Assembly: GCA_039198355.1 (NCBI GenBank)
Contig: JBCCTO010000012.1
Location: forward strand, 8,621-72,620
Direction: 5' to 3'
DNA: 64,000 bases
From: Pseudomonadota bacterium
GTDB taxonomy: Bacteria > Pseudomonadota > Alphaproteobacteria > Rhizobiales > Rhizobiaceae
Shown: piece after piece, positions 44,000 to 63,791 of the stretch
Layout of the letters: every line of letters starts with the position of its first letter
Numbering within the stretch: position 1 is the stretch's first letter
Program-made: the position numbers and the translations under genes
Notes under the pieces: model-generated
What the model saw: the letters and a program-made list of their open reading frames with translations, nothing else
Databases searched by the model: none
What the model was told of the DNA's origin: nothing

Positions 44000-44028
44000 G
44001 TTCTGGGTCTCAATGATCCCCGTTAACC

Positions 44029-45914: not shown

Positions 45915-46002
45915 GCCCTTTTTAACCGCCGATTAACCCTCCGTTCAGCACACTGGCCCTTGTTTGGGACCTGTCGGGACGGCAGCGAAGAAAGACATTT
46001 TG

Positions 46003-46812: not shown

Positions 46813-46875
46813 ATCTCCCCGCCCGGATTGTAGCAGACCGGGCGGACCACTCCTTGGCCGGGAAGGCAATGCACC

Positions 46876-48402: not shown

Positions 48403-50540
48403 AGGCGGAGACCAAGGAAGCCGTCCCGCTTCCCATCCTGCGGGATGATTTGGAAATTGTGCCCGCCGCCGCGCAAACCAATGGCGCGCCCGCTTGGGTT
48501 ATCTACGACCCCGTAGCCAATCGCTACTTTGAGATTGGGCGGGAAATTCTGGACATGTTGCTTTTGTGGCGGGTGGGCACGGTGGATGTGCTGATCCGCA
48601 AATTGCGCAGCGAATTCGGCAAGGTGGTGAGTGAAGAGGAAGTGTCGGACACGATGCACTTTCTCATTTCCAATGCGCTGGTGCGGGATATTCCCGGCAA
48701 TGATTATCGCACCATGGCGCAGAAAGAGGCGGAGAAGAAAAAGAGCTGGCTGTCCACGGCCATGCACTCCTACCTCTTCTTTCGCATTCCGCTCTTTCGC
48801 CCGGATCGGTTTTTGCATGCCACATGGCCGCTAGTCTGGCCATTGTTCACGCGAGCGGCGGTCTGGGTTTATGTGCTTATGGGTCTTTTCGGCCTCTATT
48901 TGGTGTCGCGCCAGTGGGACCAGTTTACGGGCACGTTTCAATTTATGATGTCATGGCACGGGGCGGCGCTGTACTTCGCAAGCCTTGTGTTCGTGAAGTC
49001 TATCCACGAATTGGGCCACGCCTATATGGCCGTGCGCTACGGTTTGCGCGTGCCCACCATTGGCATCGCCTTTATGGTGCTGATGCCGGTTCTGTATACG
49101 GATACGTCAGGCGCATGGCGGCTTCCCTCCCGCCGCAAGCGGTTGATGATCGACGGGGCGGGCATTTTCACCGAACTGGCCATGGCCTCCATCGCCACAC
49201 TGATCTGGGTGTTTTTGCCCGACGGGGGCCTGCGCCTTTGCGTGTTTGCTATCGCCACCACGTCTTGGGTCACATCTTTGGTGGTGAACCTGAACCCGCT
49301 CATGCGGTTTGACGGCTATTACATTCTCTCTGACACGCTGGGCTTTGGGAACCTTCAAAACCGGTCCTTCGAGATGGCCCGCTGGCGTATGCGCGAATTG
49401 CTGTTTGGGCTGGGGGAGGCACCGCCAGAGCAATTGTCCACCCGCATGCGGCGCATGGTGATCGTCCACGCCTGGGCCACTTGGATTTACCGCTTCTTCC
49501 TCTTTTTGGGCATCGCACTGCTCGTCTACACGTTTTTCATCAAGATCGTCGGCATACTCTTGTTTGTCGTGGAAATCCTCTGGTTCATCCTCATGCCGTT
49601 GGGGCGGGAGGTGGCCCATTGGTGGAGTATTCGGAGGCAGATTATGGCTGCAAAACGTATTCTTGTAACCGGGTCCGTGATGGCCGGGCTGGTGGTTCTC
49701 TCCATCATTCCCTGGTCCACCCACATCACCGTGCCCTCGCTGATGACGGCCCAACAGGAGCAGCGCCTGTTTGCGCCTTTCCCGGCGCAGGTGGTGACCA
49801 TGAACCTTTCCGAAGGGGCACAGGTGCGCGCAGGGGACGTGCTGGTGGAACTGGCTTCCCCCAAATTGGAGCGGGACCATGCCTTGGCACTGGAGCGCAA
49901 GGCGTTGCTGGAAAATCGTATTGACCGCACCAGCGCCGATGCTGAAGACCGCGCTTCGCTGATCGTGCTGGAAAATGAGTTGAAAGAAGTGCGCGAAGAA
50001 CTGGACGGCTTGGAAAGGGTTCGGGCCAAAATGGTCGTGCGCGCGCCCTTTGATGGCACGCTGTCCGATCTGGACCCGGAATTGCATACGGGTCTTTGGA
50101 TCAACCCCAAGACCCCGCTGGGCATGGTGCGCACGGCGGGTATTAGTCGAATTCGTGGTTATGTGAGTGAACGGGAAGTGTTTCGCTTCAAGGAGGGGGC
50201 TAAGGCCACCTTTATCCCCGACAATCCGGAATTACCCGAGATTGAAGCGCGTGTCGCCAGCGTGGCGGAAGCATCCGCCGAAAAGCTGCGCGAGCCCTAT
50301 TTGGCCATGACCTATGGCGGTTCCATTGCCGTAGCGCAGGGACCGGGCAGCGGTGGCGACAGCAAGGCTTTACGTCCCATGGAGGCGGAATATCCCGTGG
50401 TGTTGGCTCCGGTGAGCGAGACTGCCATGCCCGCCATGGCGGTGCGTGGCGTCACCCGCATCACCGGCAAACCCCGCAGCTTTTACAGCCGTGCAAAACA
50501 GCAAGTGCTGAAAGTATTGGTTAGGGAGATGGGTGTGTAA
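48387..50540 (+). CDS. fusion protein: PqqD/RRE-like N-domain, M50 (site-2-protease) polytopic core, C-terminal HlyD-like periplasmic domain
   Basis: HELGH and NLNPLMRFDGYY (M50 motifs) lie within about 6-8 TM helices. The N-terminus is WVIYDPVANRYFEIGREILDMLLLWRVGTVDVLIRKL..EEEVSDTMHFLISNALV. The C-terminus has LFAPFPAQVVTMNLSEGAQVRAGDVLVEL, a coiled coil, then VRAPFDGTLSDL. It overlaps the previous gene by 16 nt. Confidence 0.8.
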   Translation: MDGALKAETKEAVPLPILRDDLEIVPAAAQTNGAPAWVIYDPVANRYFEIGREILDMLLLWRVGTVDVLIRKLRSEFGKVVSEEEVSDTMHFLISNALVRDIPGNDYRTMAQKEAEKKKSWLSTAMHSYLFFRIPLFRPDRFLHATWPLVWPLFTRAAVWVYVLMGLFGLYLVSRQWDQFTGTFQFMMSWHGAALYFASLVFVKSIHELGHAYMAVRYGLRVPTIGIAFMVLMPVLYTDTSGAWRLPSRRKRLMIDGAGIFTELAMASIATLIWVFLPDGGLRLCVFAIATTSWVTSLVVNLNPLMRFDGYYILSDTLGFGNLQNRSFEMARWRMRELLFGLGEAPPEQLSTRMRRMVIVHAWATWIYRFFLFLGIALLVYTFFIKIVGILLFVVEILWFILMPLGREVAHWWSIRRQIMAAKRILVTGSVMAGLVVLSIIPWSTHITVPSLMTAQQEQRLFAPFPAQVVTMNLSEGAQVRAGDVLVELASPKLERDHALALERKALLENRIDRTSADAEDRASLIVLENELKEVREELDGLERVRAKMVVRAPFDGTLSDLDPELHTGLWINPKTPLGMVRTAGISRIRGYVSEREVFRFKEGAKATFIPDNPELPEIEARVASVAEASAEKLREPYLAMTYGGSIAVAQGPGSGGDSKALRPMEAEYPVVLAPVSETAMPAMAVRGVTRITGKPRSFYSRAKQQVLKVLVREMGV

Positions 50541-50580: not shown

Positions 50581-50691
50581 TGTGCTATTTGGCACCTGGC
50601 AGGACCTACTCCACATCATCATGCTGGCAAAACGTCGCGGTGGCTCTATATTAGTGTTAGCCCTAAATGCCCCCGCCCGATGGAGACCCCC

Positions 50692-51780
50692 ATGGCCAGC
50701 CTTGCCAAATTTGACAGCCAGATCGAACGTACCCGCTCCACCGTGGAGGAGATGCGCGAAAAGATAAAGCAATCCGGCGTGGTGCTGGAAAAGATGGCCA
50801 AGTCAGAAACCATCGGTGAGGCGGATTTCGACATTGAAAACGCCCGCATTCAGGACGTGTTGCGCCAGCAGCAGGTGATGGAGGGCAATATTGCTGATCT
50901 CATCATCGGGCTGGAGGATGCCACCAATGTGTTTGGTTCCGAATTCGAATCCATGAAGTCCTATACGGGCTATGAGAAGTTTATTTCCATCTTCTCCAAA
51001 CAACGTGCCCAGCGCATGCGCACGGACCGGGTGCGCAACATGTCGCTTTCCGGCAATTTGCAGGAATTGCTCACCAAGTCCGACACGATCACGGGCATTT
51101 TGCAGGAGCAGGAGAAAATTCTCACCGAGCGCTACGACCAGTCGGAAAATTCCCTGCGGGAGGTGATCGAGCGGCGCAAGGGCACCATCAACATGCTGGA
51201 AGAAACCCAAAACCGCATCGAAGAACTGAACCCCATGCTGCTGGACTTGGAAAACCAGATTTCCGTGGCCACGGATCAGACCAAGCGGGCGGAACTGGAA
51301 GGCCAGCGCTCCGAAATGGCGACCGAATACAACCAGCTTCAGGCCAAGGAGCAAGAGCTCTTGGCGGAAAGCCAGACGCTGGAGCGCTATACATCCATGT
51401 TCCAGACCTTTGTGGATTCGTTGAATAATCAGAAAGCAGCGCAGGCCACGCTCATCAACAAACTGACCATCGATACCGAGCAACGCATCGTCCTCTACAA
51501 GGCGCTGGAAGACTCATTGAAAACGGCCGCCCAACAGGACGTGGCTCACAAAATCAACACGCTGGGCAATCAGGTGGACACGGCAGCTGAAAGCACCATG
51601 GCTGGCATCGGTGCGGCGGCCCAAAGTCATATTGGCGATCTGCTGGAAATGCATGAGAAAAACATGGTGTCTACGCAAGACATCCAGCGCCGTAAACAAT
51701 TGGCTGATGATGCATTTGCCCGCCGCTTCGCCGAGGTAATGGAGAAGCACAACAAGGCGGATTATGTGGCCCAAAGTTAA
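50692..51780 (+). CDS. all-helical coiled-coil protein, TelA/YaaN-like (tentative)
   Basis: ORF 50680..51780; ATG 50692 is preferred (GGAGA 5 nt upstream). Heptad-rich along its whole length. The segment YEKFISIFSKQRAQRMRTDRVRNMSLSGNLQELLTKSDTITGILQEQEKIL resembles the TelA core as I remember it. Confidence 0.55.
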   Translation: MASLAKFDSQIERTRSTVEEMREKIKQSGVVLEKMAKSETIGEADFDIENARIQDVLRQQQVMEGNIADLIIGLEDATNVFGSEFESMKSYTGYEKFISIFSKQRAQRMRTDRVRNMSLSGNLQELLTKSDTITGILQEQEKILTERYDQSENSLREVIERRKGTINMLEETQNRIEELNPMLLDLENQISVATDQTKRAELEGQRSEMATEYNQLQAKEQELLAESQTLERYTSMFQTFVDSLNNQKAAQATLINKLTIDTEQRIVLYKALEDSLKTAAQQDVAHKINTLGNQVDTAAESTMAGIGAAAQSHIGDLLEMHEKNMVSTQDIQRRKQLADDAFARRFAEVMEKHNKADYVAQS

Positions 51781-51801
51781 TGTAAGCGCCGGGGCCAACG
51801 T

Positions 51802-53001
51802 TTGCGGAATGACCCTGTGAGCGATTTGAAAGAGAAAATGGAAGCTCCAAAGGGGCGTGCGGATAGCGAGGCTGCAGCCGAACGCTATTTCCGCGCCATT
51901 GATGCGGCGCTGGAAGGGTTGGACACCTATTTGGGGGACGAGCAGGAGTCACCTCTCTACAATCACCAACTCACGGGCGCCATTCTGGAAAGCTATATTG
52001 ACCGGATGCGCCAGTCTTTTCGCGCTTGGGAAGACCGGCTGGCCTTTTCCAGCCGGTTTCGCATCAACCGCGCCGAAAGCGGCTATCCCCTTCTTCAGCA
52101 TGTGATGGAGTTGGACAAAGACGCGCGCGATGCCTCCAAACAACTTGCGGCGCTGCCGTCCGCCGACCAGTTGCGCAAGGACATGGTGGATTTCATTCTG
52201 CTGAAGAATAAGTTCCCTGCCGAGGTTCAAAAGACGCTGGCGCGGCGTATGTATCTGGAAGAAGTGGAGGGACGAGAGGTATTTCGCCCCTTCATTCTGC
52301 CCCAGAGCGTGCGCGTTGGGTTTAACGAGAAAAGCAAACGTCCCTTTTATGTGGTTCACTGGGGGGCGTTTGATGGGGCCGCCCATCTGCCCCTCGTTTA
52401 TGTAGCCGTGATCGAAGATTCCTCAGGCACCATGGCCAAACTGCTGCTGGAAGGCGGTAAGTTGAAGGAGGATTTGGATGTTCCTTTTCCGATCGGCGGC
52501 CTGTTGAACCCTGATTTGGCCCACCAGTTCGACGATTTCTGCGAGAAAAACTCTGCCTACGGGCTGACGCTGATGACCATCGCCGACAATATGGACAAGG
52601 ACTTCGAGCACCTGCACCCCACGCAATTGCGCCGCATTGTGATGGGCCCTTTCTATTCAGCCGGTGTCACCAGCCATGGCGGGTTGGTGACCGGAATTCT
52701 CGATCAGGTCCATAATACGAAAAACGCCTGGATGCTCACATGGACCCAGCAGGAGCTCTATTCCATCTCGGAAACCCCCGCGAAATGGGGCTTGTTTTCC
52801 TCAACACCCGCGCGCCAGACTTACCATATCGAAACCGGCGATCTGGAAGCCGTGCGACAGGGCGTGAGTGCCTATGAACGCCACGCTCTGGTGCCACACG
52901 AGGCCTATCAGGCCATCTATGCCAGTGGGAAACGGGATGCGGTTTTTGGGGGGTACAAGACCCATGTCGTGAGCGGGCGGCAGGTGTTGCGGGACTTTTG
53001 A
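51802..53001 (+). CDS. hypothetical protein (~390-399 aa), family not recognised
   Basis: Long ORF with the same strand and composition as its neighbours. TTG 51802 is in the track; GTG 51817 and ATG 51838 are alternative starts. Confidence 0.6.
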   Translation: MRNDPVSDLKEKMEAPKGRADSEAAAERYFRAIDAALEGLDTYLGDEQESPLYNHQLTGAILESYIDRMRQSFRAWEDRLAFSSRFRINRAESGYPLLQHVMELDKDARDASKQLAALPSADQLRKDMVDFILLKNKFPAEVQKTLARRMYLEEVEGREVFRPFILPQSVRVGFNEKSKRPFYVVHWGAFDGAAHLPLVYVAVIEDSSGTMAKLLLEGGKLKEDLDVPFPIGGLLNPDLAHQFDDFCEKNSAYGLTLMTIADNMDKDFEHLHPTQLRRIVMGPFYSAGVTSHGGLVTGILDQVHNTKNAWMLTWTQQELYSISETPAKWGLFSSTPARQTYHIETGDLEAVRQGVSAYERHALVPHEAYQAIYASGKRDAVFGGYKTHVVSGRQVLRDF

Positions 53002-53052
53002 GGGTGGTACCGTTCCTGTTTTTTCCTATGTCAAGGATTGAAGGAGAGTGAC

Positions 53053-53238
53053 ATGAGCTTTGAAGGTGAGATCGATAAAGACAACTGGGATGAGTATCGT
53101 GCTCTGGAAAAACAGGTCTCCGAGCGCAACATGCGAAGGTCTGCTGCTTACCGAGACTGGCATGACTGGGCAAGACTTGGCGTTCTCACCTGCGTTGCGT
53201 TCATAGTCATAATTCTCGCTGACTGGTTGTTGAATTAA
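53053..53238 (+). CDS. tail-anchored microprotein 1 (61 aa: acidic/charged N-part plus C-terminal TM)
   Basis: AAGGAG SD lies 7 nt before ATG 53053 (the track ORF starts at TTG 53038). Sequence is MSFEGEIDKDNWDEYRALEKQV...LGVLTCVAFIVIILADWLL. The segment is more AT-rich than its flanks. Confidence 0.5.
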   Translation: MSFEGEIDKDNWDEYRALEKQVSERNMRRSAAYRDWHDWARLGVLTCVAFIVIILADWLLN

Positions 53239-53424
53239 GTGGACTACACTGACGATGATCTGGACGATGAGCTCAAGCGTCGAAAAATTTATGAAAGTCG
53301 AGCTTTAGCGGACAAATACAGGGCAGAAACCGAATATATTCGCGCTCAAACCAAATATTATGCCGTATTTATTGCAACTGGCTTGGCAGCCGCTGTTCTA
53401 GCTTTCGTGAAATTGGTTCTTTGA
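53239..53424 (+). CDS. tail-anchored microprotein 2 (61 aa, same architecture)
   Basis: The GTG start comes immediately after the previous TAA. Sequence is DYTDDDLDDELKRRKIYES...YYAVFIATGLAAAVLAFVKLVL. Its stop lies 1 nt before the AAA+ ATG. Confidence 0.45.
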   Translation: MDYTDDDLDDELKRRKIYESRALADKYRAETEYIRAQTKYYAVFIATGLAAAVLAFVKLVL

Positions 53425-53425
53425 T

Positions 53426-55330
53426 ATGGACGCTTCCCTCTCCACCCTTTCCGAACAGGATATTGAAAAGCACATCCCTGTCGCTGCATCTCTTATCAAG
53501 CGGTTTGTGCAGGTGCAGGTGGGGGGCAATGAAAACCGCACTGAGATTGCGGGCACGCGGCGGCGTTTTGTATCCACGGTCTCCACAGGCGGCACGAAAT
53601 CTACCCGTGAGGTGGAGTTTTCTCAGACTGTTACCGCGCTCAACAACGGGGATGCGCTGCTGTCTCCTGCCCAGCACGCCCTGATCTACAATACCCGCCG
53701 TGGGCTGGCGGTGGCTCTGGCTGTGGGTGATCTGTTTGCCGATCAAACTGGGCTTGATGCGCTTACACAACGCAACAAGTCTGGTGATCTTTCCAGTGAG
53801 GACACCTCGCGTTTTCGGGCCTTGGTGGAATCCTCTGCCTATGTCGTGGCATTCACCGCGGCGGCCTATCTGCTGCAAATGCTGCCCGAAGAGGGGGAGC
53901 TGGCCAGCGATGTGGCCGAACCGGAATTTCTGTTCGACACGCCGCAAGATGCGCTCAAAGGGTTGGTTGCTGCCTTAAACACCGCAGTGGAGGGTGCTGT
54001 AGACGACAAGGTGATGGTGGCCCGCGCTCGTCAGGCAGCACGACTAGCACTTGATGATTTGCTCTCCCGTCGCGCGCGCTTCACCGGCCTTGGCCCCTTT
54101 GAAAATGTGCATTTGCGGCTGGAAAGCGATGGGTTCGAACTAAATGGGTTTGATGTTGCCCCCGGGGCCAAGCGCACCAAGCTGGTGATGCAGTTCAAGA
54201 AGCCTAACGAAATCATTGGCAACCACATCGCGAAATATCAGGCCATGAAACTGGCCAAAATGCTTATGGCCTATGACTTTGAGCGCCAGATGAACCCCTT
54301 TGTGGACCTGGGCGGTTTCCTGTTCACCTTCATCGGCGATGGCGCGCCCGGCACCGGTAAGACCATCCTGATCCAGATGATTGCCGGGATGATAAACGAT
54401 TACTGCCAGATGGCAGGCTATGGGTTCACCTATGAGAATTTTGGGGTGGATCAGATTTCATCCTATCAGGGTAAGTCGGGCCAGAACTGCAAACAGTTTG
54501 TTTCCAATGTGCTGAACCCCAAGACCATCGGGTTTGGCACCATTGACGATATTGACCAAGTGGCCGCGAAACGGGCCGATGATCGCTCCTCCGCCGGTCA
54601 GCAGGAAGTGACCGCCGTGCTGATGGAGAGTTTCGCCGGGGCCAACACGGTGGTGCGCGGCAACTGCACCTTTGGCATGTTCTCCAATTATCCAGAAAAC
54701 GTGGACGATGCCCTGCGCCAGCGGGCCGGGAGTCGCTGGCTGGTGGACGGGCCGCAGACGCGGGCGGACTATATCGATATTTTCGCCCTGCTGGCGGGCA
54801 AGAACCATTCTATCCAGCTGGGCGATCATGATCTTTACGAAGCCCAAGCCATCGAACGGGCGGTGAACGAGGCCTATTCCGATTACAGCAAGCCGCAAGA
54901 GGAAGGTTTGAAAACGGTCTATGACCGGTTTCTGAACGATCACGGAGAACCGCAAACGATCACCGATATCGGCACCTATCTGCACATGATTAAACTGGCC
55001 GAACCCCGCTTCACCGGACGGGCCATCAAAAACATCACCGATGCCATCAAAATGCGCGCCATGGATGTGGAATTGCCGGACGAATGGTTTGAAAAGCCCG
55101 AAGCCTTCGTGGGCAAGGACTATGACGGCAAAAAAGCCATGATCGAGGAGCTTCGGGGGCCATTCACCATGGACATGGTCATGCAGGAGATCAACCGCTA
55201 CGCCGACTCAGAATTCCGCTACTCCGACCGCAGCGATAGCGCTGCGGTGGAAGAGATTATTCGGCGTGAGAGGCAACGGGAACGGGCCATTGGCGAGATC
55301 GAGGCCATGAAAGCCGAGGGGCGGTGGTAG
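53426..55330 (+). CDS. AAA+ ATPase (classical AAA clade-like) with ~300-aa unknown helical N-terminal domain
   Basis: Walker A is GDGAPGTGKTIL and Walker B is GFGTIDDIDQ. Sensor/arginine region is NYPENVDDALRQRAGSRWLVDGP. The C-terminal helical tail ends ..RERAIGEIEAMKAEGRW. Confidence 0.85.
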   Translation: MDASLSTLSEQDIEKHIPVAASLIKRFVQVQVGGNENRTEIAGTRRRFVSTVSTGGTKSTREVEFSQTVTALNNGDALLSPAQHALIYNTRRGLAVALAVGDLFADQTGLDALTQRNKSGDLSSEDTSRFRALVESSAYVVAFTAAAYLLQMLPEEGELASDVAEPEFLFDTPQDALKGLVAALNTAVEGAVDDKVMVARARQAARLALDDLLSRRARFTGLGPFENVHLRLESDGFELNGFDVAPGAKRTKLVMQFKKPNEIIGNHIAKYQAMKLAKMLMAYDFERQMNPFVDLGGFLFTFIGDGAPGTGKTILIQMIAGMINDYCQMAGYGFTYENFGVDQISSYQGKSGQNCKQFVSNVLNPKTIGFGTIDDIDQVAAKRADDRSSAGQQEVTAVLMESFAGANTVVRGNCTFGMFSNYPENVDDALRQRAGSRWLVDGPQTRADYIDIFALLAGKNHSIQLGDHDLYEAQAIERAVNEAYSDYSKPQEEGLKTVYDRFLNDHGEPQTITDIGTYLHMIKLAEPRFTGRAIKNITDAIKMRAMDVELPDEWFEKPEAFVGKDYDGKKAMIEELRGPFTMDMVMQEINRYADSEFRYSDRSDSAAVEEIIRRERQRERAIGEIEAMKAEGRW

Positions 55331-55441
55331 CTTTAGGGCTTATCCAACAAGCGCTTCGAACTCACTTCAAGTCTCATCGGGGTCTGGTATTGGTAACACT
55401 TCCTTTTTCAGCCCCACTTGCCTGTCCCAGATTTGTGGAAG

Positions 55442-56149
55442 TTAGATGAGTTCCCAGGACCAGCCGAGATACGAACCGTAATCCCAGTAATACGCCAATT
55501 GTGCGTACCAACCGACGTGCCATCCAACCGTCCATCCCACGTGCCAACTGACGTTCCAGCCGTAAGCCCAGCCCTCATACCAAGCCCAACTCCAGCCCCA
55601 TCTCCAACTGGGTGCTTCGCCATAGATGCTGCGGGAAGTGTCTAGGTAGTAAGTATATTCGTATGCATAATAGTTGCCGTAGTAATAGCCCACATTCCAT
55701 CCCAGGTTCCAGCCGACGTGCCAGCCCACGTTCCAACCGTAGCTCCAACCTGTAGAGTAGCTGTCTTGGTGCCAACCGTACTGCCAGCCAAGAACATAAG
55801 TCCAGCTTTCAAAATTGGTTGTTTGAACTTGTAATACGTAATCAGACTCAGCTACTGCGAATGCGTCTACTGCAATATACACAGTTTGTGCGCCAGTAAA
55901 CTCAACGGTCATCCCTTCGCTGGCAGCGCCTCTTTGCGTGCCAGAACTTTTAAGCACGTATTCATCATCGTAGACGTAGAGATCTAGATCCTCGTATAGG
56001 CGCTGCAACGTTATGGAGATAATCCCGCGCCCGGACACATCGATTGAAAAGTAATCCACCGGATCAAACAAATCGACGCGATCTTCCACAATCCCATAGT
56101 CGTTTGGTAGTGGTATGGGACGGGCTGTTGCGAAAGAGTTGTCGGACAT
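55442..56149 (-). CDS. PPC (pre-peptidase C-terminal)-like domain fused to an extreme Trp/Gly/Tyr-rich tetrapeptide-repeat region
   Basis: ORF 55442..56206 (TTG); ATG 56149 (MSDNSF) is preferred. The N-terminal half has DPVDYFSIDVSGRGIISITL...DLDLYVYDD..., which is PPC-like. The C-terminal 124 aa hold 22 Trp (hand count) in GWxVGW-type repeats (GWSYGWNVGWHVGWNLGWNVG ... GWAYGWNVSWHVGWTVGWHVGW). Confidence 0.7.
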   Translation of the reverse strand: MSDNSFATARPIPLPNDYGIVEDRVDLFDPVDYFSIDVSGRGIISITLQRLYEDLDLYVYDDEYVLKSSGTQRGAASEGMTVEFTGAQTVYIAVDAFAVAESDYVLQVQTTNFESWTYVLGWQYGWHQDSYSTGWSYGWNVGWHVGWNLGWNVGYYYGNYYAYEYTYYLDTSRSIYGEAPSWRWGWSWAWYEGWAYGWNVSWHVGWTVGWHVGWYAQLAYYWDYGSYLGWSWELI

Positions 56150-56234
56150 TTTGATATTTCCAGATTGGAACGTAGACCCAGCGTGCCAGAATTTGAGGCG
56201 TTCCAATAGACTCTAAAACCCTCTGTTTTGCACT

Positions 56235-56345
56235 TTAACGCCCAATCTCCCGCTCTGCAGCTTGCGCTAAAAACCCGGACCGCGTCATCTTTCTTTGCGC
56301 CGCGGCTTCATCTACCGCTTTCGGCAATCCATTGTATGAAGTCAT
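56235..56345 (-). CDS. 36-aa ribbon-helix-helix-like ORF or antitoxin fragment (MTSYNGLPKAVDEAAAQRKMTRSGFLAQAAEREIGR)
   Basis: Hand-found. The ..AVDEAA...M(T/S)RSGFLAQAA.. pattern resembles the RHH C-terminal part of CopG/HicB-type antitoxins. It is too short to be a complete protein of that type. Confidence 0.3.
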   Translation of the reverse strand: MTSYNGLPKAVDEAAAQRKMTRSGFLAQAAEREIGR

Positions 56346-56377
56346 AGTGATACGCGTTGACTTGTCCGCAATGCGGA

Positions 56378-56454
56378 GCGGTGGAAGAGACTATCTGAAG
56401 CGGGAGCGGGCTATTGGAGACGTTCAGGCGACGGAGGCCGAGGGGTGGTGGTGA
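56378..56454 (+). pseudogene. displaced, frameshifted copy of the 3' end of the AAA+ ATPase gene
   Basis: 56401..56454 (RERAIGDVQATEAEGWW*) aligns codon for codon with 55277..55330 (RERAIGEIEAMKAEGRW*), with 40 of 54 nt identical by hand alignment. The upstream GCGGTGGAAGAGA block is also shared (55244 vs 56378), but with a 10-nt length difference. Confidence 0.6.
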
Positions 56455-56512
56455 TTGAACTTTGCACCCTGTGAGCCTATGTTGGCTAAGTTGGCCAGAA
56501 TGGAAATTTGCG

Positions 56513-56767
56513 ATGTCTGTGACGGTTGGAACCTACGAAGCCAGAAACAATTTGAGCGCTCTTTTGGACAGGGTCGAACGAGGCGAAAGCGTAACGATCA
56601 CGCGCAATGGTAAGCCCATTGCAGAACTGCGGTCTCCGCAACAGGTCCATGATCGTGCGAAAGCGCAGGCAGCTGCAAAGCGCATGCTGGAACGGCGTGC
56701 AAAAATTCCGATGCCGAAAAGAGGCGATCCAACCATACGCGAAATGAGAGAAGAGGGGCGCATGTGA
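56513..56767 (+). CDS. Phd/YefM-type antitoxin
   Basis: ORF 56462..56767, with the start at ATG 56513 (MSVTVGTYEARNNLSALLDRVERGESVTITRNGKPIAEL). It overlaps the PIN gene start by 4 nt. Confidence 0.8.
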   Translation: MSVTVGTYEARNNLSALLDRVERGESVTITRNGKPIAELRSPQQVHDRAKAQAAAKRMLERRAKIPMPKRGDPTIREMREEGRM

Positions 56768-57183
56768 CCTATGTGCTTGATGCTTCGGTTGCTGCTTCAT
56801 GGACTTTGCCTGATGAGGCAGACGCCTATGGCGACGCGGCATTGGAAACGCTTTCAGCGCACGGGGCCGTAGCGCCGGAGTTTTTCATTGTGGAAATTGC
56901 CAATGTTTTGAATTCAGCCATTCGGCGAAATCGCATATCAGAAGAAGATCGTGATGGTTCTCTTAATGACTTGATGGACAGCAATATTTCTTATTATTCC
57001 ATTGATCGAGATATTTGCTGGCGCACGATAACTAAACTCGCCCACAATCAAATGCTGTCAGTGTATGATGCCATTTATATTCATACCGCTAAACAAACAG
57101 GACTGCCGCTGGCTACACTGGACAAAAAGCTGGCTCGCGCGTGCTCGCCGGTTGGCGTCTCTCTGTGGAAACCAACCCCATGA
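56764..57183 (+). CDS. vapC: PIN-domain toxin (VapC-like)
   Basis: GTG start. Contains YVLDASVAASW (first acidic residue), ..EIANVL.. and ..VYDAIYIHTAKQTGLPLATLDKKL... The stop overlaps the next ATG (ATGA at 57180-57183). Confidence 0.85.
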   Translation: MTYVLDASVAASWTLPDEADAYGDAALETLSAHGAVAPEFFIVEIANVLNSAIRRNRISEEDRDGSLNDLMDSNISYYSIDRDICWRTITKLAHNQMLSVYDAIYIHTAKQTGLPLATLDKKLARACSPVGVSLWKPTP

Positions 57184-58472
57184 AACGCCTTGAGGATAAC
57201 GCGCTCATCTTTGGGCGGATGATGCGGGTGGCGGAGCCGCATTTGATTGAGCGGTACAATGAGGCGCTCACCGGCTTTAATTTGCCGCCCACCAAGCTCA
57301 AATCATTTCGCATTGATTTGACGGGCTTTTCGCCGGAGGTGGCGGATGAGCTGGGGGATCGGCAGTATCTCGATCCCCACGGGGTGAATCGGCGCTTTAT
57401 AATTCTCTCCCCCAGTCAGCGGGAATTGCCGGTGGTGCATACGGCATTTTCCAATACCGGCCAGCTCATGCACGAGTTTTTTGATGCCAACAGCCGGGTT
57501 ATCAACGCGCTCACCATCAAGGACGTGATCTTCGGGGAGATTGATGACCCCGTGCTGGAGGCGCGGGATATTGATGATCTGCTCTCCATCGAACAGGTGG
57601 AATTTAAGGTTTCCACCGGGCGGGATGTGGCGGGGCAGGCGCTGAAATTGCGGCGTATGATCGACCGAGTTCTGAAGGAGCCGGATGGCTGGCGCGATGA
57701 TGCCATGCTGGAAGAGATGGTGGAGATTTCCAAATCCACAGGCGACATCCGCGCCAATGAACTGGTGCCCCAATCAGTGATCTTTCGCCATGATGCGTTT
57801 TGGACCAGTCATTTTGGCGGGCTTTACGTATTCATCGATGAAAAAGACACGACGGTGATCGGCGATCCCGCTGCCCCGGGTTTTCGCCGGTCTCGGCCAT
57901 GGCAGGTTAGCTATATCGACCGCAAGGATGCCGATCTGGTGTTCCGCTTCCTCACGGAGACCGGGCGGGTTGACCTGCCGCGCGGGTCCTGGATTGAGCG
58001 GTCGGGCTATCTCAAGCATCGCATCCACATGCTCATCACCATGCTGGCTTTCCTGGAAGACCCCGATGACGACCACGAACCCCATTCGGGTAAGTGGCGG
58101 CGGCACTGGACGCGGCGCAACAGCAAGCTGATCGAAAAAGAGGGCACGCTCCCATTCCTGGAATGGGCGCAGCGGGAATATGAAAGCTGGGCCACGCTGG
58201 ACTTGAACGAAGTGGATGCACGGGGGCGTTTCATCCTCTCCCGCGCCAAGCCGGGGCATGAGGACCAATGGCTGGTGAACAGGCTTATCAGCGATTATGT
58301 GCCGTTTGATTTTGTCTCCCGCTATATTTTCAACAAACCCAGCTTCTATCCCGATTATGAAGGCTGGCGCGAAGAGCTGCGGGAATATGTGGTGGAAACC
58401 ATCCAGCATCTCTATCACAGCGATAAGCGCGGGTTCCGCCGCCGCTTGTACGGCCATCACGGCTCAGACTAA
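57180..58472 (+). CDS. hypothetical protein (430 aa), family not recognised
   Basis: ORF 57141..58472, with the start at ATG 57180 (MKRLEDNALIFGRMMRVAEPHLIERYNEAL). Soluble-looking, with host-like composition. Confidence 0.6.
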   Translation: MKRLEDNALIFGRMMRVAEPHLIERYNEALTGFNLPPTKLKSFRIDLTGFSPEVADELGDRQYLDPHGVNRRFIILSPSQRELPVVHTAFSNTGQLMHEFFDANSRVINALTIKDVIFGEIDDPVLEARDIDDLLSIEQVEFKVSTGRDVAGQALKLRRMIDRVLKEPDGWRDDAMLEEMVEISKSTGDIRANELVPQSVIFRHDAFWTSHFGGLYVFIDEKDTTVIGDPAAPGFRRSRPWQVSYIDRKDADLVFRFLTETGRVDLPRGSWIERSGYLKHRIHMLITMLAFLEDPDDDHEPHSGKWRRHWTRRNSKLIEKEGTLPFLEWAQREYESWATLDLNEVDARGRFILSRAKPGHEDQWLVNRLISDYVPFDFVSRYIFNKPSFYPDYEGWREELREYVVETIQHLYHSDKRGFRRRLYGHHGSD

Positions 58473-58505
58473 AGTCCGCCCAACGGAGCGGCAAAGGATA
58501 CGACC

Positions 58506-59633
58506 ATGCTCGACCCAATCGTGAATTTCTTCGTGCGCGTGTTCAATATGATTGGGCGTGGCATTGGCTGGGTGATCGCTGCGATCCTGTTTCCGTTTGT
58601 TTGGATCACGCGCTGGGTTCGCAAAAGGGGGTTCGCCTTAAAATCCGCTTTCGCGCTGTTGTTGATCGGCATCGTTGCTGGCTACTTTTACCTCATCTGG
58701 CAGACCCAGCGGTATCCCAGCTTCGATATTGCCTATACAGATCGTTATAACTGGACCTCTCGCAGCCTCTCCGCTGGTGAGGAGGTTGTGGCTGAAGGGG
58801 AGACCAGCGGGGCAGGGGAGACGAAAACCTGTGCACCATCGGCCATTGTGCAGGTGACGCGGGATTTGATCGACTTCAACGTCAATCAAAACCAGTGGGT
58901 GCCCTCCATGCTGTTCCAAAAGCTGGGCTTCTTCGGGCTGGATTGGAAATACACCCCCTTTTTCGACAATAAGGCCGCGTTTCAGCGGGGCATTAATCAG
59001 GCGGTGCGGCGCACTTCGGCAGAATTGATTGACCGCCTTGGTCGTGTGCGGGGCACAAGCCAGTTGGACGGTGATTTGCAGAGCGCCCGAGAGGCGGTCT
59101 TTTATCCTGAAGACTTGTGGTATGTGTCTGGCCTGCGTCCGGTGCAGCCGACGCCCAGCCGGTTCCGCGCAGCCATACCAGCGCTGGAAAAATTCAATGA
59201 TCGTCTTGTCAAATGCGAGGCCACGTTCGACCCGCGCGCTGACAACCTGGTGCAGTTTCTGGACAGGGTGACATCGGATATTGGCTCCACGTCTGACATT
59301 CTGCGCGAGCAGACAGAGCGTTCCAACGCAGGGTGGTTCGACTTTCGGGCAGATGACCGTTTCTGGTTCACCTTTGGGCAGCTTTACGGCTATTCCGGCA
59401 TCATGCGTGCCGCGCGGGCGGACTTTAACTCGGTGGTGGAGACGCGGGGTCTTGCCAGCGTGTGGGCGCGGCTGGAGCAGCAATTTGAGCAAGCCCTCGC
59501 CATCCAGCCCCTAGTGATCTCCAACGGCGCCGAGGACGGTTTCATCATGCCCACCCATTTGGCCACAGAGGGGTTTTATGTGCTGCGCGTGCGCTCCAAT
59601 CTCGTGGAGATGCGGGATATTCTGGATCGCTAA
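58506..59633 (+). CDS. membrane-anchored protein, DUF2333-like (tentative)
   Basis: Two N-terminal TM helices (IGWVIAAILFPFVWI, ALLLIGIVAGYFYLIW) and a ~300-aa domain with WVPSMLFQKLGFFGLDWKYTPFFDNKAAFQRGINQ. The DUF2333 assignment is from memory only. Confidence 0.55.
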   Translation: MLDPIVNFFVRVFNMIGRGIGWVIAAILFPFVWITRWVRKRGFALKSAFALLLIGIVAGYFYLIWQTQRYPSFDIAYTDRYNWTSRSLSAGEEVVAEGETSGAGETKTCAPSAIVQVTRDLIDFNVNQNQWVPSMLFQKLGFFGLDWKYTPFFDNKAAFQRGINQAVRRTSAELIDRLGRVRGTSQLDGDLQSAREAVFYPEDLWYVSGLRPVQPTPSRFRAAIPALEKFNDRLVKCEATFDPRADNLVQFLDRVTSDIGSTSDILREQTERSNAGWFDFRADDRFWFTFGQLYGYSGIMRAARADFNSVVETRGLASVWARLEQQFEQALAIQPLVISNGAEDGFIMPTHLATEGFYVLRVRSNLVEMRDILDR

Positions 59634-59764
59634 GACAGGCTTTCTCCAAGAAATTTAGCAATTCGGTTCATTTCCCTTAACTCTTCGTTTACGAATACAA
59701 CTTATAAGTGTATTGATCGAAGAAACAACGGATTACGATTCGAAGCATAGGAAATTCAAGAACA

Positions 59765-59825
59765 CTGTTACCGATCCCCTGCTTTTCCTCGGTAACAGCG
59801 TGACCCGCTCCAAGCGGGTTTTTTG
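59765..59825 (+). ncRNA. candidate small-RNA 3' module: 9-bp hairpin with C/U-rich loop plus Rho-independent terminator
   Basis: CTGTTACCG-ATCCCCTGCTTTTCCT-CGGTAACAG, then ACCCGC-TCCAA-GCGGGTTTTTT (59803-59825). It lies 130-190 nt beyond the nearest upstream stop codon. The 5' end is unknown. Confidence 0.25.
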
Positions 59826-59924
59826 AGGGAGACCGATCATCCGCCCGATGGGTTTTCTTCTCCACGAAGCCGCTTGCTGTAGGGCATTCCTGCTACCCGC
59901 CCACAGCCCGCGTTTCGGCAAAAT

Positions 59925-59964
59925 GGGGTCGTGTATCTGCCCGATGCACGACCCCTCTTTTATT
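59925..59964 (+). terminator. second orphan terminator-like hairpin (GGGGTCGTG-13 nt-CACGACCCC plus TCTTTTATT)
   Basis: Perfect 9-bp GC-rich stem followed by a U-rich tract, with no credible ORF ending upstream of it. Confidence 0.45.
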
Positions 59965-60115
59965 CCCTCTCACTTTTTCCCTCACGGCAATTCGGCTTTG
60001 CCGAACACCTGCGGGACGCAGCAAACGCTTGCCAGGCGGCTCTTCGCCGCCTTTACTTTCGGGGCAGTGGCATAATGCACTTGCCAAACTTCGTTTGAGC
60101 GCGTTAGCTAACGCT

Positions 60116-60157
60116 ATGAACATCCAATTGAACATTTCCTGGTGGTGGGCGCTTTAA
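60116..60157 (+). CDS. trpL: trp leader peptide MNIQLNISWWWAL (three consecutive Trp codons)
   Basis: Hand-found 13-codon ORF, followed 37 nt later by a hairpin plus T9 terminator and then trpE(G). It resembles the rhizobial trpL peptide (..NIS.WWWA.) as I recall it. Confidence 0.8.
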   Translation: MNIQLNISWWWAL

Positions 60158-60193
60158 CGCGGCATCGGGAGAGACTTGTTTGAAAACAACCCA

Positions 60194-60224
60194 GGCCGCT
60201 CCAAATTCGGGGCGGTTTTTTTTT
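60194..60224 (+). terminator. trp attenuator terminator
   Basis: GGCCGCTCC-AAATTC-GGGGCGG followed by nine T, located between trpL and the trpE(G) start (60336). Confidence 0.8.
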
Positions 60225-60335
60225 GCCATGACGCTTCGCGCATAGAGCAAAAATGTATCGGAAAATGCGCAGCCTTGGCGCAGTTTCCGGTTCGTTTCGC
60301 GCGATACGTCGACCGGCATAAACGGAGAAAGAGCT

Positions 60336-62504
60336 ATGGCAGGTCAGGAACAGCCCTTCCGCTACAGAACCGAGGGCGGCATTGAAGTAACCCGGCACCG
60401 CTCGCCCACCGACTATGCGGGAGCGGTTGAGGCCTATGTGAGCCAGTTAGACACGCGGCGCGGGGCAGTGTTTTCGTCAAACTATGAATATCCGGGCCGT
60501 TACACGCGCTGGGATACGGCCATGATCGACCCGCCCTTGGGCGTTTCTTCCCGCGCCCGGGCGGTGAAGGTTGAGGCTTATAATGAGCGGGGGCGGGTGC
60601 TCCTGGACATGATCCAGCCCGTGCTGGAAGCCCATGAGCATTTTGAGGATTTTGCGCGCGAGGGCGATCTTCTTCGCCTTAGGGTGAAAGAGCCGGAAGG
60701 GGTGGTGAGTGAAGAAATGCGCTCCCGCGCACCCACCGTCTTTTCCGTGCTACGGGCCATTGTGGACCTCTTCCGGTCCGACGCCGACCCGTCCTTGGCG
60801 CTCTATGGTGCCTTTGGCTATGACCTCTGCTTTCAGTTCGACCCCATCGACCTGCGGCTGGAGCGTCCGGAAGATCAGCGGGATATGGTCATGTTTCTGC
60901 CCGATGAAATTCTGGTGGTGGACCACCACGCGGCGCAGGCCTGGCATGAGCGGTATGATTTTGCGTTAGAAGACGCTTCCACTCTAGGGCTGGCGCGCGG
61001 CGGGCCGGAAGTCCCGTTCGTGCCTGCCGATCACGATCCGGGTCGGGGTGACCACGAGCCGGGGGAATATGCGGCGCTGGTGCACAAAGCCAAGGAGAAA
61101 TTTCTGCGCGGTGACCTGTTTGAGGTAGTGCCGGGACAAGTATTCACTGAGCGCTGCGCTAACCCGCCTTCCGCCATTTCGCGCAAACTGAAGGAGATCA
61201 ATCCGTCCCCCTATTCCTTCTTCATCAATTTGGGGGAGGGCGAATATCTGGTGGGGGCAAGCCCTGAAATGTTCGTGCGGGTGAATGGACGGCGGGTGGA
61301 AACTTGCCCCATTTCGGGCACCATAAAACGGGGGCGTGACCCCATCGAAGACAGTGAGCAAATTCTCAAACTGCTCAATTCCAAAAAGGATGAGTCGGAA
61401 CTGACCATGTGTTCCGATGTGGACCGGAACGACAAAAGCCGCGTGTGCGAGCCGGGCAGTGTGAAAGTGATCGGGCGGCGGCAGATCGAGATGTATTCGC
61501 GGCTCATCCACACGGTGGACCATATTGAGGGCCGCTTGCGTGCGGATATGGATGCGTTCGACGCCTTCCTCTCCCACGCCTGGGCAGTGACGGTGACGGG
61601 TGCGCCGAAACTCTGGGCCATGCGGTTTATCGAACAGCACGAGCGGAGCCCCCGCGCTTGGTATGGCGGGGCCGTGGGCATGGTGGGCTTCAATGGCGAC
61701 ATGAATACGGGGCTCACGCTTCGCACAGTACGTATCAAAAACGGTATCGCGGAAGTGCGGGCCGGAGCCACGCTTCTTTATGATAGCGTTCCCGAGGAAG
61801 AAGAGGCGGAGACGGAGCTGAAAGCCTCCGCCATGTTGCAGGCCATCCGCGACACGACATTGGGAAATGGGGCCGGGGGGGTGCGCAAGGCGGCCCGGGT
61901 GGGGGAAGGCGTGAAAATCCTGCTCGTGGACCACGAGGACAGCTTTGTGCACACGCTGGCCAATTATTTCCGCCAGACGGGGGCAGATGTGGTGACCCTG
62001 CGCACGCCTATTGCCGAAGCGGCGTTTGATGAAATCAAGCCCGATTTGGTCGTACTCTCCCCCGGCCCCGGCAATCCGCAGGATTTTGATTGTGAGGCGA
62101 CCATCACAAAGGCCCGCGCGCGCAACCTGCCGCTCTTCGGCGTGTGCCTTGGGTTGCAGGCGCTGACGGAAGCCTATGGGGGTCAGCTGGACCAGTTGAA
62201 AACGCCCATGCACGGCAAGCCCTCACGCATCAAATGCCAAGACAATTCCATTGTGTTTTCCGGGCTGGAAGATCAGATCACCGTGGGCCGCTATCATTCG
62301 CTCTTTGCTGATCTTGCCCATCTGCCGGACGATATTCGCGTGACGGCGGAGACGGTTGACGGTGTAATTATGGGGATTGAGCATAAGACAGAGCCGGTCG
62401 CTGCCGTGCAGTTCCACCCCGAAAGCATCATGTCGCTGGGGCAGGACGCGGGGCAGAGGATGATTGAAAACGTGGTGGCCCATTTGGGGAAAGGTGCGCG
62501 GTAG
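60336..62504 (+). CDS. trpE: anthranilate synthase, fused component I plus glutamine amidotransferase component II, TrpE(G)
   Basis: 722 aa. The TrpE core has [26 protein letters not shown] and [24 protein letters not shown]. The C-terminal GATase has [19 protein letters not shown] and [18 protein letters not shown] is present. Confidence 0.92.
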
Positions 62505-62563
62505 GCAAGGTCTGTATCTAACCGGCATCTTTTTCATTGCAGCTGCTGGGGCTGCGCTGTGGG

Positions 62564-63035
62564 TTACAACACCCTCGTCATAAACGTGCTGAACGGGTCC
62601 AATTCATAATTCGCAAACGGACCGCATTCCTTAAAGCCGTTGCGCTTGTATAGCCTCCTCCCAGGAAGAAAATCATCAGTGGAGCCGGTTTCGAGGCTTA
62701 GCCTTTCATAGCCACGGCTGCGGGCTTCTTTTTTCCAGCGTGTCGTAAAGAGCCTGACCAATGCCCACTCCCCGGCGCACTTGCCGTGTGTGCATGGATT
62801 TGATTTCGCCGTGGGCGGGGTCCAGTTCGGATAGGGCAACGCAGCCCACCAGTTCTCCATCCAATTTCGCGCTCCAGAAGGTGATGTTGTCGGCGCGCAG
62901 GGCATCCAAATCCAGCGCGTGGACGCTTTCGGGCGGGGAGATGGAGCGCATGAGGTCCAGATGGGTTTCCAGCAGAGCGGCGATTTCTCTGCCCTGCAAG
63001 TCGTCCGGTTTAATGACGAGCGCTGCTGGTGTCAT
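62564..63035 (-). pseudogene. GNAT-family N-acetyltransferase with a +1 frameshift in an A6 (T6 on the plus strand) homopolymer
   Basis: Two overlapping ORFs (62706..63035 and 62564..62905) carry the N-part (..HTRQVRRGVGIGQALYDTLEK) and the C-part (EARSRGYERLSLETGSTDDFLPGRRLYKRNGF) of one GNAT fold. The frames switch at the T6 run 62729-62734. Confidence 0.7.
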
Positions 63036-63041
63036 GGGAAA

Positions 63042-63419
63042 TCAGCCCTCTTCCGTGGGGCCGCCAGCTTCCTTCCACGCGCCAAAACCTCCGATATTCG
63101 TGACGTTGGTGAAGCCCATATCCTTGAGCGTTTTGCCCGCCAGCGCAGCTTGGCCGCCCGCGCCGCAGATCAGATAAATCTCCGCATCCTTTTTCAGCAC
63201 GTCTTTATGCATGGGCGTGTTTTCGTCGGCGTAAAATTCGATCATGCCACGGGGAAAGCGATGGGCGTTTTTGATGGTGCCGCTTTCCGCAATGGCGGCG
63301 CTGTCGCGCACATCAATGAAAACGCCACCGCCTTTATGATAGGCTTCAATGGCCTGTTCAGGGCCCATTTTCGGGACACTGGCGTTAGCCTCATCCATAT
63401 AATCTTTGGCGCTCTTCAT
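63042..63419 (-). CDS. single-domain rhodanese-like sulfurtransferase
   Basis: 125 aa. Contains FIDVRD and the active-site loop ICGAGGQAALAGKTL. Confidence 0.85.
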   Translation of the reverse strand: MKSAKDYMDEANASVPKMGPEQAIEAYHKGGGVFIDVRDSAAIAESGTIKNAHRFPRGMIEFYADENTPMHKDVLKKDAEIYLICGAGGQAALAGKTLKDMGFTNVTNIGGFGAWKEAGGPTEEG

Positions 63420-63791
63420 GGGGAATATCCTGTGGTTTTCAGCCGATGCGGAATTATGGGCAAAGACTGCCAGATTCGGAAGTCACCCAGCTTTAGGGAG
63501 TGAAAAAAGCGCTAAAGGCGGCCGGACGGGGCCGAGGTGTTCTTTAGTCTGATATGAGACCGGCCATCGGCGGCAACCGCCGGTATTTCCACGCAAAAAG
63601 CGACAATTTGCCGATGCAAGATTGTCGCGCAGGCCTATGAGCGCTGGACAAGACACCCATATGATGGCTAGACGAACCGAGAGGGATGCCGGTTGTGTTT
63701 GCACGCAAAACTAGTGTCAAAATGTCAGCTTTTCGCTGAATAAGCAACACAACAAAGGGCCCTTAAGGGTATTATCCGCAGAGGACGTAAT

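Follow-up and report, generated by a model that had tools for sequence, protein, structure and literature searches.

A recurrent, modular C-terminal domain rich in tryptophan, tyrosine and glycine (GW module) is shared by many paralogs of a small protein encoded in the window, i.e. the whole stretch of 64,000 nucleotides analysed here. In the window protein the module follows a PPC-type beta-sandwich (Table 1), and it appears to be a domain that has been undescribed so far. With a paralogous family at hand, the question shifts from an odd orphan to a C-terminal module of exoproteins. We infer a hairpin fold for the module, type I secretion system (T1SS) export for the window protein and an anchoring role. 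As the best explanation, which we hold tentatively, we propose that the GW module serves the C-terminal export and surface retention or assembly of type-I-secreted exoproteins.

Table 1. Location of the window gene, its two halves and the proposed parts of the GW module
Feature	Coordinates	Strand	Basis
Complete CDS, 235 aa plus stop	55442..56149	minus	ATG start at 56149
PPC-type (pre-peptidase C-terminal / collagen-binding-domain-like) beta-sandwich, residues ~10-111	55817..56122	minus	Pfam, AF2, Foldseek, profile relatives
C-terminal Trp/Tyr/Gly-rich GW module, residues 112-235	55445..55816	minus	composition, lag statistics, paralog alignment
Proposed hairpin arm 1, residues 133-169: GWSYGWNVGWHVGWNLGWNV tetrads into Tyr-rich strand GYYYGNYYAYEYTYYL	55643..55753	minus	register analysis
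Proposed turn, residues 170-175 (DTSRSI)	55625..55642	minus	register analysis
Proposed hairpin arm 2, residues 176-216: YGEAPSWRWGWSWAWYE then GWAYGWNVSWHVGWTVGWHVGWYA	55502..55624	minus	register analysis
C-terminal tail, residues 217-235, ending ...GWSWELI	55445..55501	minus	sequence

The window gene is real and protein-coding, and it is under purifying selection. It stands alone; the gene of an AAA ATPase is convergent with it, the Phd/PIN and DUF6638 genes are divergent, and no other ORF of this kind occurs in the window. Its ortholog at locus L001 of the MAG Pseudomonadota isolate J06621_16 (GCA_038525315) is likewise a 235-aa protein, 83% identical. Length is conserved, and pN is approximately 0.10 in the PPC half and in the GW half alike. 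An identical protein is present in the independent assembly SRR22824307. One might suspect that the ORF is spurious and merely overlies a DNA repeat, or that the gene is a pseudogene in decay, as the composition resembles low complexity, GC3 is below that of the neighbouring genes, and a promoter and terminator consensus scan of the gene found nothing. Comparison with the ortholog by codon position and frame effectively refutes this suspicion, and its probability is negligible. The two genes align without a gap at 73% nucleotide identity, differences at codon positions one, two and three number 29, 23 and 138, respectively, and all alternative frames are interrupted by 5-22 stops each. Moreover, the homologs P0003, P0015 and P0004 retain both domains at only 33-40% identity. 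Since the frame is under purifying selection, the gene itself is real, and the coding frame chosen in the original prediction stands, with third-position changes dominating and stops in all other frames. No conservation upstream of the gene was found against the MAG ortholog, and no Rfam element was matched in positions 52000-64000 of the window.

The gene had also been regarded as acquired cargo inside an insertion, a claim of which only a part survives. In MAG J06621_16 the ortholog occupies the equivalent position, with the gene of a 634-aa AAA ATPase on one side and DUF6638-DUF2333-trpE(G) on the other, and this syntenic position means that the GW gene is not a fresh insertion. The only indel between the two loci is the Phd/PIN toxin-antitoxin pair at 56462-57183. 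What stands is the unusual composition and divergence of the gene. GC3 is 0.56 in the window GW gene and 0.51 in its ortholog, as compared to approximately 0.70 in the flanking genes; for the GW paralogs in the MAG the values are 0.62 vs 0.71. Between the window and the MAG locus, the protein identity of 83% compares to 95-97% for the flanking genes, the fraction of differing 4-fold silent sites is 0.73 (saturated) as compared to 0.38-0.43, and pN is 0.10 as compared to 0.02-0.03. Divergence is concentrated in the GW gene as compared to its flanks. Recombination may have exchanged the gene as a cassette, or it may simply be fast-evolving. PADLOC, applied to the neighbourhood with a defence island in mind, gave no meaningful match.

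The N-terminal half has the PPC/collagen-binding-domain fold and is homologous to recognised PPC members via profile relatives, in agreement with the PPC or collagenase-type beta-sandwich first suspected. The Pfam PPC family (PF04151) matches residues 31-94 over HMM positions 2-68 of 70; the score of 23.1 bits (E = 1.4e-4) narrowly misses the cut-off of 25.9. AF2 models this half with a pLDDT of 70-82, and the best Foldseek matches are the PPC domain of Bacillus anthracis collagenase (5sv5) and the ColG collagen-binding domain (1nqj, 2o8o), with target TM-scores of 0.62-0.72. A profile search against 1.84 billion representatives yielded 1314 matches, nearly all at profile positions ~10-120. 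Many of the matched proteins are giants in which this segment recurs, in as many as 24 copies. Four sampled relatives are bona fide PPC-repeat proteins with 2-7 PF04151 repeats each. Fold and profile relationship are thus shared with PPC and clostridial collagen-binding domains, whereas the architecture differs: PPC domains usually follow a protease or form tandem arrays, and the window protein has a single N-terminal copy with the GW module as its sole partner. At E ≤ 10, no Pfam family other than PPC was found in the window protein.

Composition and periodicity set the C-terminal half apart. The last 124 residues contain 22 Trp (17.7%), the number counted in the original prediction, together with 21 Tyr and 18 Gly; at a background of 1.4%, 22 or more Trp would be expected with a binomial probability of approximately 6e-18. 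Trp-Trp pairs number 14 at lag 4 and 12 at lag 8, whereas 5000 shuffled sequences gave 3.6 on average and never more than 10, and at the odd lags 1, 3, 5, 7 and 11 there is not a single pair in the window module. The peptide blocks quoted earlier as evidence of a 4-residue periodicity are present, and the lag statistics show this periodicity to be real. Its reported 12-nt counterpart in the DNA was recovered by Tandem Repeats Finder at 55687-55755. When the window module is aligned with 14 paralog modules, 13 W/G columns are invariant. Neither Pfam nor NCBIfam nor the PDB sequences, the latter queried by single-sequence and profile searches, gave a match to the GW module, and no description of GWNVGW or a comparable repeat was found in the searched literature; the repeat was rightly called unrecognised. 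It was also rightly distinguished from the Listeria GW module, since no GW or cell-wall-binding Pfam family matched at E ≤ 10.

The pattern search that had been suggested did find the family. A pattern scan of one genome per species and tblastn of contigs, followed by an ORF scan of the loci, recovered at least 30 ORFs in MAG J06621_16 and Aliiruegeria genomes that end in the same (G-W-polar-Y/V)n module. At least 21 of these are distinct ORFs of the MAG and at least nine belong to Aliiruegeria sabulilitoris and A. lutimaris. The HMM searches suggested along with it largely failed: GW profiles returned 2-7 matches from large protein databases and missed even the query's own protein, presumably due to composition and bias correction. 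A JGI metagenome scan added one true new member, L028, which combines M10 with the GW module; the other metagenome matches were rejected as simple DNA repeats that read as (GWNV)n in frames that do not look coding. The family is rare and confined to a narrow roseobacter-type lineage, within which it is strongly expanded. Across 645 family tetrads the consensus is G (73%), W, a polar residue (N/Y/H/D/S) and Y (46%), V (18%) or L/F. The window module is atypical in that its turn region is extended and Tyr-rich.

Within the family the GW module is always found at the extreme C-terminus, and its partners vary. Pfam identified PD40 propeller repeats, RTX HemolysinCabind, CARDB and Peptidase_M10 in the N-terminal parts of the paralogs, all of them domains of exoprotein type; other members carry PPC. 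In paralogs at L008, L011 and L012 RTX repeats (PF00353) lie upstream of the GW module. GW ORFs of MAG J06621_16 often form tandem arrays (three at L007, four at L008, three at L010). Pure-repeat ORFs, which consist of 20-26% Trp and up to 32% Tyr, also occur in tandem arrays, and in two genera small pure-GW genes adjoin an S8 protease gene and a sulfotransferase-like gene. Beyond this pair and generic ABC ATPases, a search across all GW loci found no recurrent neighbour.

Two loci lie close to tryptophan biosynthesis genes: the window gene is located 4 kb from the trpE(G) fusion gene, and paralog P0004 is located 3 kb from trpF-trpB-trpA. One might therefore think of a Trp sink, a Trp reserve or a translational sensor of charged tRNA-Trp. 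This is very improbable. More than a dozen other paralog loci are found in unrelated contexts without a recurrent neighbour, the window gene and trpE(G) are on opposite strands with two or four genes between them, the partner domains are extracellular types, and the region holds no Rfam leader or attenuator. Given the unrelated contexts of the other paralogs, we rejected the trp-gene link as a probable coincidence.

Concerning the fold, the even-only spacing places all Trp on one face of a beta-strand and is hard to reconcile with a helix. Most likely, as judged from the repeat pattern, the GW module folds into a single two-stranded beta-hairpin of great length in which Trp faces Trp. Canonical family modules consist of two tetrad runs of matched length (6/6, 9/9, 9/10, 10/10, 11/11, 12/12), and in 16 two-arm modules the arm lengths correlate with r = 0.82. 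At the break between the runs, the two flanking Trp lie exactly 7 apart in all 17 canonical cases, with the consensus W-Y-[LF]-D-G-[TS]-G-W. The central D-G is a classic tight-turn sequence. Pairing the arms around this D-G turn makes Trp face Trp and position-4 residue face position-4 residue, and leaves one Gly and one polar residue per pair for the other face. The first face of such a hairpin would be a continuous cross-strand Trp-Trp ladder alternating with Tyr/Val pairs, similar to a giant tryptophan zipper, and each cross-strand pair of the second face would combine Gly with a polar residue.

The window module can be read in the same way. In arm 1 every odd position from 135 to 169 is aromatic or hydrophobic, in arm 2 Trp occupies even positions from 182 to 214, including the run W182-x-W-x-W-x-W-x-W190, and the aromatic periodicity of the module is interrupted only at the proposed turn. 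Among the registers 343-347, i+j = 345, with its turn centre at S172-R173, gives the most W-W pairs (5) and the most aromatic-aromatic pairs (12), while the neighbouring registers give 0-1 W-W pairs. The W-W pairs are W151-W194, W147-W198, W143-W202, W139-W206 and W135-W210, and they are joined by the V-V pairs V145-V200 and V141-V204. Further towards the turn, Y155, Y157, Y161 and Y163 face W190, W188, W184 and W182, which sets the Tyr-rich strand Y155-Y163 opposite the WxWxW strand W190-W182. On the opposite face there is exactly one Gly per pair, from G154-Y191 through G134-H211. The module had been described as two blocks separated by a Tyr-rich linker. In register 345 it is better read as one hairpin, where the Tyr-rich segment and SWRWGWSWAW are best read as complementary strands that would extend it.

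Structure prediction, proposed earlier as a check, modelled the PPC half and gave low confidence for the module, beta in one run and helical in the other. AF2 on the full-length protein (4 sequences) drew four long beta strands in the GW part with pLDDT below 50, and AF2 on the module only (10 sequences) drew an alpha-helical hairpin with pLDDT 55. These models are unconfident and mutually contradictory, and neither is usable for the GW module. Cross-arm side-chain-volume covariation was approximately zero (r) in the proposed register as well as in shifted registers. The original idea of a beta-solenoid or amyloid-like structure keeps its general part, as a beta-rich repeat architecture is likely; none of the tests specifically supports a beta-solenoid or an amyloid.

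Structurally, the GW module would most resemble, by analogy, the designed tryptophan zippers (trpzip peptides) reportedly introduced by Cochran et al. in 2001. Trpzips share with the break consensus of the GW family cross-strand Trp-Trp pairs that flank a tight D/N-G turn. They are, however, synthetic peptides of 12-16 residues with two W-W pairs in W-x-W spacing, whereas the natural GW domain comprises 80-120 residues with W-x-x-x-W spacing and a predicted 5-12 W-W pairs.

How do these proteins reach their place of action? A hydropathy scan of 34 sequences, the window protein together with 33 paralog ORFs, found no Sec-like hydrophobic N-terminus: within the first 45 residues no 10-residue stretch scored above 1.6, as compared to 2.26 for a signal-peptide control. 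In-frame upstream extension of the window ORF adds no hydrophobic segment, and the original reading, which saw no signal peptide, is confirmed. RTX repeats and M10 (serralysin-type) proteases are standard type I secretion cargo, and T1SS signals reside at the extreme C-terminus. At A. sabulilitoris locus L023, the genes of a PrtD-type ABC exporter and of a HlyD-family adaptor, the latter overlapping the former, lie directly downstream of a pure GW-repeat gene and on its strand. The best NCBIfam match of this exporter is TIGR01842 (type_I_sec_PrtD) with 450 bits, below the cut-off of 510, and the adaptor matches TIGR01843 (type_I_hlyD) with 313 bits, above the cut-off of 209. T1SS genes adjoin a GW gene at only this one of approximately 20 loci. 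In the window, TolC-like and adaptor genes are located 5-11 kb from the GW gene, and no ABC exporter was found near it. The window protein ends in an acidic residue followed by hydrophobic residues (GWSWELI), and relatives have similar endings (EYVV, VEIV, DLAS); presumably, such endings loosely recall the Dxxx motif of PrtD-type T1SS substrates.

The RTX and M10 partners, the lack of Sec signals, the T1SS-linked gene and the extreme C-terminal position together lead us to the proposal of export and retention. Accordingly worded, the window gene product would be a small two-domain exoprotein with a PPC-type binding beta-sandwich and a GW module, the PPC binding domain being its cargo. Proteins with a GW module would leave the cell C-terminus-first via a type I secretion system. 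Their aromatic face might then hold them non-covalently at the cell surface or in the extracellular matrix, with envelope polysaccharide, lipid or the pure-GW proteins of the same genomes as candidate partners.

Functionally, the closest analogies would be the repeat regions at the C-terminus of T1SS substrates and the repeats with which Gram-positive bacteria anchor proteins non-covalently. RTX/serralysin-type T1SS substrates also lack an N-terminal signal peptide and carry a Gly-rich short tandem repeat at the C-terminus, and they share with the GW family partner types (M10, RTX-bearing) and, in one case, a PrtD-type ABC and HlyD gene neighbourhood. In contrast, the GW period is 4 and the RTX period is 9, the GW module has no Asp-rich Ca2+-binding GGxGxD motif and an extreme Trp/Tyr content, and it is predicted to be a two-stranded hairpin where RTX forms a beta-roll. 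Genuine RTX repeats and the module also occur together in some paralogs, the module coming after them and not in their place; in the window protein, Pfam found RTX nonapeptide repeats (PF00353, GGxGxDxUx) to be absent. The GW modules of Listeria and the choline-binding repeats resemble our module as Gly/aromatic C-terminal repeats that tether unrelated secreted proteins, with the modular logic of many cargo domains and one shared tail. Nevertheless, there is no sequence similarity to the GW module (no Pfam match), and repeat lengths differ: the SH3-like Listeria GW module measures approximately 80 aa and choline-binding repeats approximately 20 aa, as compared to 4 aa. Choline-binding or cell-wall-binding repeats (CW_binding_1) had no match in the window protein, consistent with its period of 4. 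Moreover, Listeria GW and choline-binding proteins have Sec signals, and their ligands are teichoic acids, which are absent from these Gram-negative alphaproteobacteria.

C-terminal sorting tags such as the T9SS CTD and PEP-CTERM are found on many paralogs per genome. The GW module is similar in being one homologous C-terminal element on dozens of unrelated exoproteins, lineage-restricted and lineage-expanded, and dissimilar in that T9SS CTD and PEP-CTERM use an N-terminal Sec signal and a sortase-like partner, neither of which was found for GW. Two further classes were compared. The marks of an outer-membrane beta-barrel or autotransporter anchor, a Sec signal and a C-terminal beta-signal ending in an aromatic residue, are lacking: there is no signal peptide, and the C-termini vary (ELI, LA, SI, AAA, GAF, among others). 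Those of functional amyloids of the curli CsgA or Fap FapC type are lacking too: Pfam and NCBIfam gave no repeat match, and no dedicated secretion genes were among the neighbours scanned.

Other uses of a long aromatic face have to be weighed against export and retention. The continuous hydrophobic face must be buried somehow, and the hairpins could stack via their aromatic faces into cross-beta fibres or sheets, i.e. act as a self-polymerising block. Pure-GW proteins would then build a matrix or fibre in which GW-tagged enzymes and binders co-assemble, which would suit the tandem arrays of pure-repeat ORFs with up to 26% Trp and 32% Tyr; the S8 protease and sulfotransferase-like gene beside small pure-GW genes in two genera hint at processing. 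We consider such polymerisation unlikely, as there is no homology to the curli, Fap or chaplin systems, the neighbours scanned include no genes dedicated to amyloid secretion, and the defined length, the conserved turn and the tetrad-specific residues (e.g. GWG at fixed tetrads) suit a discrete domain better than an open-ended aggregator.

W, Y and F show the strongest membrane-interface preference on the Wimley-White scale. Together with the strict alternation of a hydrophobic/aromatic face (W, Y, V, L, F) with a Gly/polar face and the four long strands of the full-length AF2 run, this would agree with a membrane-active amphipathic beta-hairpin that sits in or inserts into the outer membrane as an anchor or pore. 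Several copies might even combine into a beta-barrel, like the stems of beta-pore-forming toxins or the 4-strand trimeric autotransporter anchors. Yet the arms comprise 24-48 residues (6-12 tetrads) and far exceed a membrane-spanning strand, and the side facing the lipid would be almost all W/Y instead of aliphatic. The classical outer-membrane-protein pathway needs a Sec signal and a conserved terminal aromatic residue, and GW proteins have neither. Pfam found no toxin-like partner domains in the N-terminal parts of the paralogs. A membrane hairpin is rather unlikely on these grounds.

The planar aromatic strip could also be directed at insoluble marine polymers and not at the producer cell. 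As a carbohydrate- or substrate-binding module it would resemble type-A CBMs or choline-binding repeats, and an aromatic ladder fused to M10 proteases and to the binding domains PPC and CARDB would make sense in this role. The repeat of cellulose and chitin is 10.3 Å, which is at odds with a spacing of ~13 Å between successive Trp. Similarity to any CBM or cell-wall-binding family was not found, and the module is also present without a catalytic partner or as a whole protein. We regard polymer binding as unlikely, even though the Gly/aromatic choline-binding repeats of LytA do form beta-hairpins (PMC4471590).

Beyond export and retention as such, the module might represent an undescribed autonomous fold, a giant Trp-zipper ribbon of ~100-150 Å that defines a lineage-specific export and display system, a reading that we find conceivable but doubtful. 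Dozens of type-I-secreted proteins per genome, the PPC protein included, would use their aromatic ladders to dock at the cell surface or on a scaffold of pure-GW proteins with 20-26% Trp. In a remoter variant the stacked indole ladder itself would have a physical function, e.g. adhesion to hydrophobic surfaces or long-range electron hopping.

Since composition-corrected HMM searches largely missed the GW family, similar aromatic-repeat families may be systematically under-detected. If the inference holds, the GW module would be a new protein architecture with the longest natural tryptophan ladder, in which the most expensive amino acid makes up as much as 26% of residues. It would offer structural biologists and protein designers a natural, evolvable scaffold of a hyper-stable hairpin. 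As a recognisable tag, the module would help to predict the exoproteome of a roseobacter lineage. For the bacteria themselves, it would be a new Gram-negative way to keep Sec-independent, type-I-secreted enzymes and binders attached instead of losing them to the sea.

The clear indel at this locus is a Phd/YefM antitoxin and PIN toxin gene pair, not the GW gene, whose product ends in the Trp-rich (G-W-polar-Y/V)n repeat that we call the GW module. MAG J06621_16 is otherwise syntenic here (locus L001) and is missing the pair, with only ~255 bp between its GW gene and DUF6638. GC3 is 0.45-0.52 in the pair versus ~0.70 in the flanks. The GW gene together with both flanking spacers forms a divergence hot spot. 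Between the window and L001, the fraction of differing four-fold silent sites reaches saturation in the GW gene (0.73) as compared to 0.38-0.43 in the adjacent genes, and amino-acid identity is 83% for the GW gene versus 95-97% for its neighbours. The spacers on either side of the GW gene do not align at all between the two loci. Allelic replacement or locally fast evolution are possible causes of the hot spot.

The GW gene is flanked by a conserved block encoding a 366-aa ORF, a 399-aa ORF, an AAA ATPase (634 aa), DUF6638 and DUF2333; the copy in MAG J06621_16 carries an additional YARHG/DUF4453 gene. The 366-aa and 399-aa ORFs have no match in Pfam, and PADLOC returned nothing meaningful in the block. 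At lower window coordinates lies a run of an adhesin gene, a TolC-like OEP gene and three membrane-fusion genes, among which no ABC exporter gene was seen. The third membrane-fusion gene is a fusion with a HExxH intramembrane protease, the protease part giving a weak M50 match and a daptide_HExxH-like match of 156 bits, below the cut-off.

Coordinates of features at the GW locus and at related loci (window positions unless a locus is named)
Feature	Position	Strand	Remark
Adhesin-to-membrane-fusion gene run	31166-50540	+	
Adhesin (4255 aa)	first gene of run	+	DUF4347, Cadherin_4/5, Big_9, He_PIG
TolC-like OEP gene	44166-45914	+	after adhesin
Membrane-fusion genes (three)	45964-46812, 46876-48402, 48387-50540	+	
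Conserved block	50680-55330 and 57180-59633	+	common to window and MAG J06621_16
Divergence hot spot	55331-56461; L001 9747-10761		
Phd/YefM-PIN pair	56462-57183	+	no counterpart in MAG J06621_16 locus
trpE(G) fusion gene	59634-62504 (region)	+	4 kb from GW gene
trpF-trpB-trpA	L003 4321-7411 (region)		another MAG; 3 kb from GW paralog
Pure GW/YGW-repeat ORFs	L023 3-8187 (region)		Aliiruegeria sabulilitoris
Pure GW/YGW-repeat ORFs	L019 4841-8811 (region)		MAG J06621_16

Pure GW/YGW-repeat ORFs contain up to 26% Trp and 32% Tyr. Downstream of the repeat gene, L023 carries genes for a T1SS ABC protein and an HlyD adaptor, then two small ORFs rich in Gly and Pro, and then a Sulfotransfer_3-like gene and one for an S8 protease. 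At L019, three pure-GW ORFs (91-132 aa) lie beside the orthologs of these S8 and sulfotransferase genes. Such surroundings hint at processing or Tyr sulfation.

Four metagenome or MAG contigs (L022, L031, L036, L040) with perfect (GWNV)n runs were rejected as false positives, the motif being mimicked by simple 12-nt DNA repeats; the ORFs that contain the runs otherwise look non-coding, are Arg/Gly-rich and lack domains. In P0154, a small JGI metagenome protein of 113 aa, (GWxNGW)n repeats come after a clear Sec signal peptide. This is a Trp tetrad repeat distinct from the GW module, and it uses Sec export.

Genes for trp lie near GW genes in two cases, and we judge this closeness to be probably coincidental; Rfam gave no match in the 700-bp gap before trpE(G).

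Composition and bias correction presumably explain why searches of 5.8 billion proteins with the GW-module profile missed even the protein from which the query came. Standard HMM pipelines are likely to under-detect aromatic-repeat families such as the GW module.
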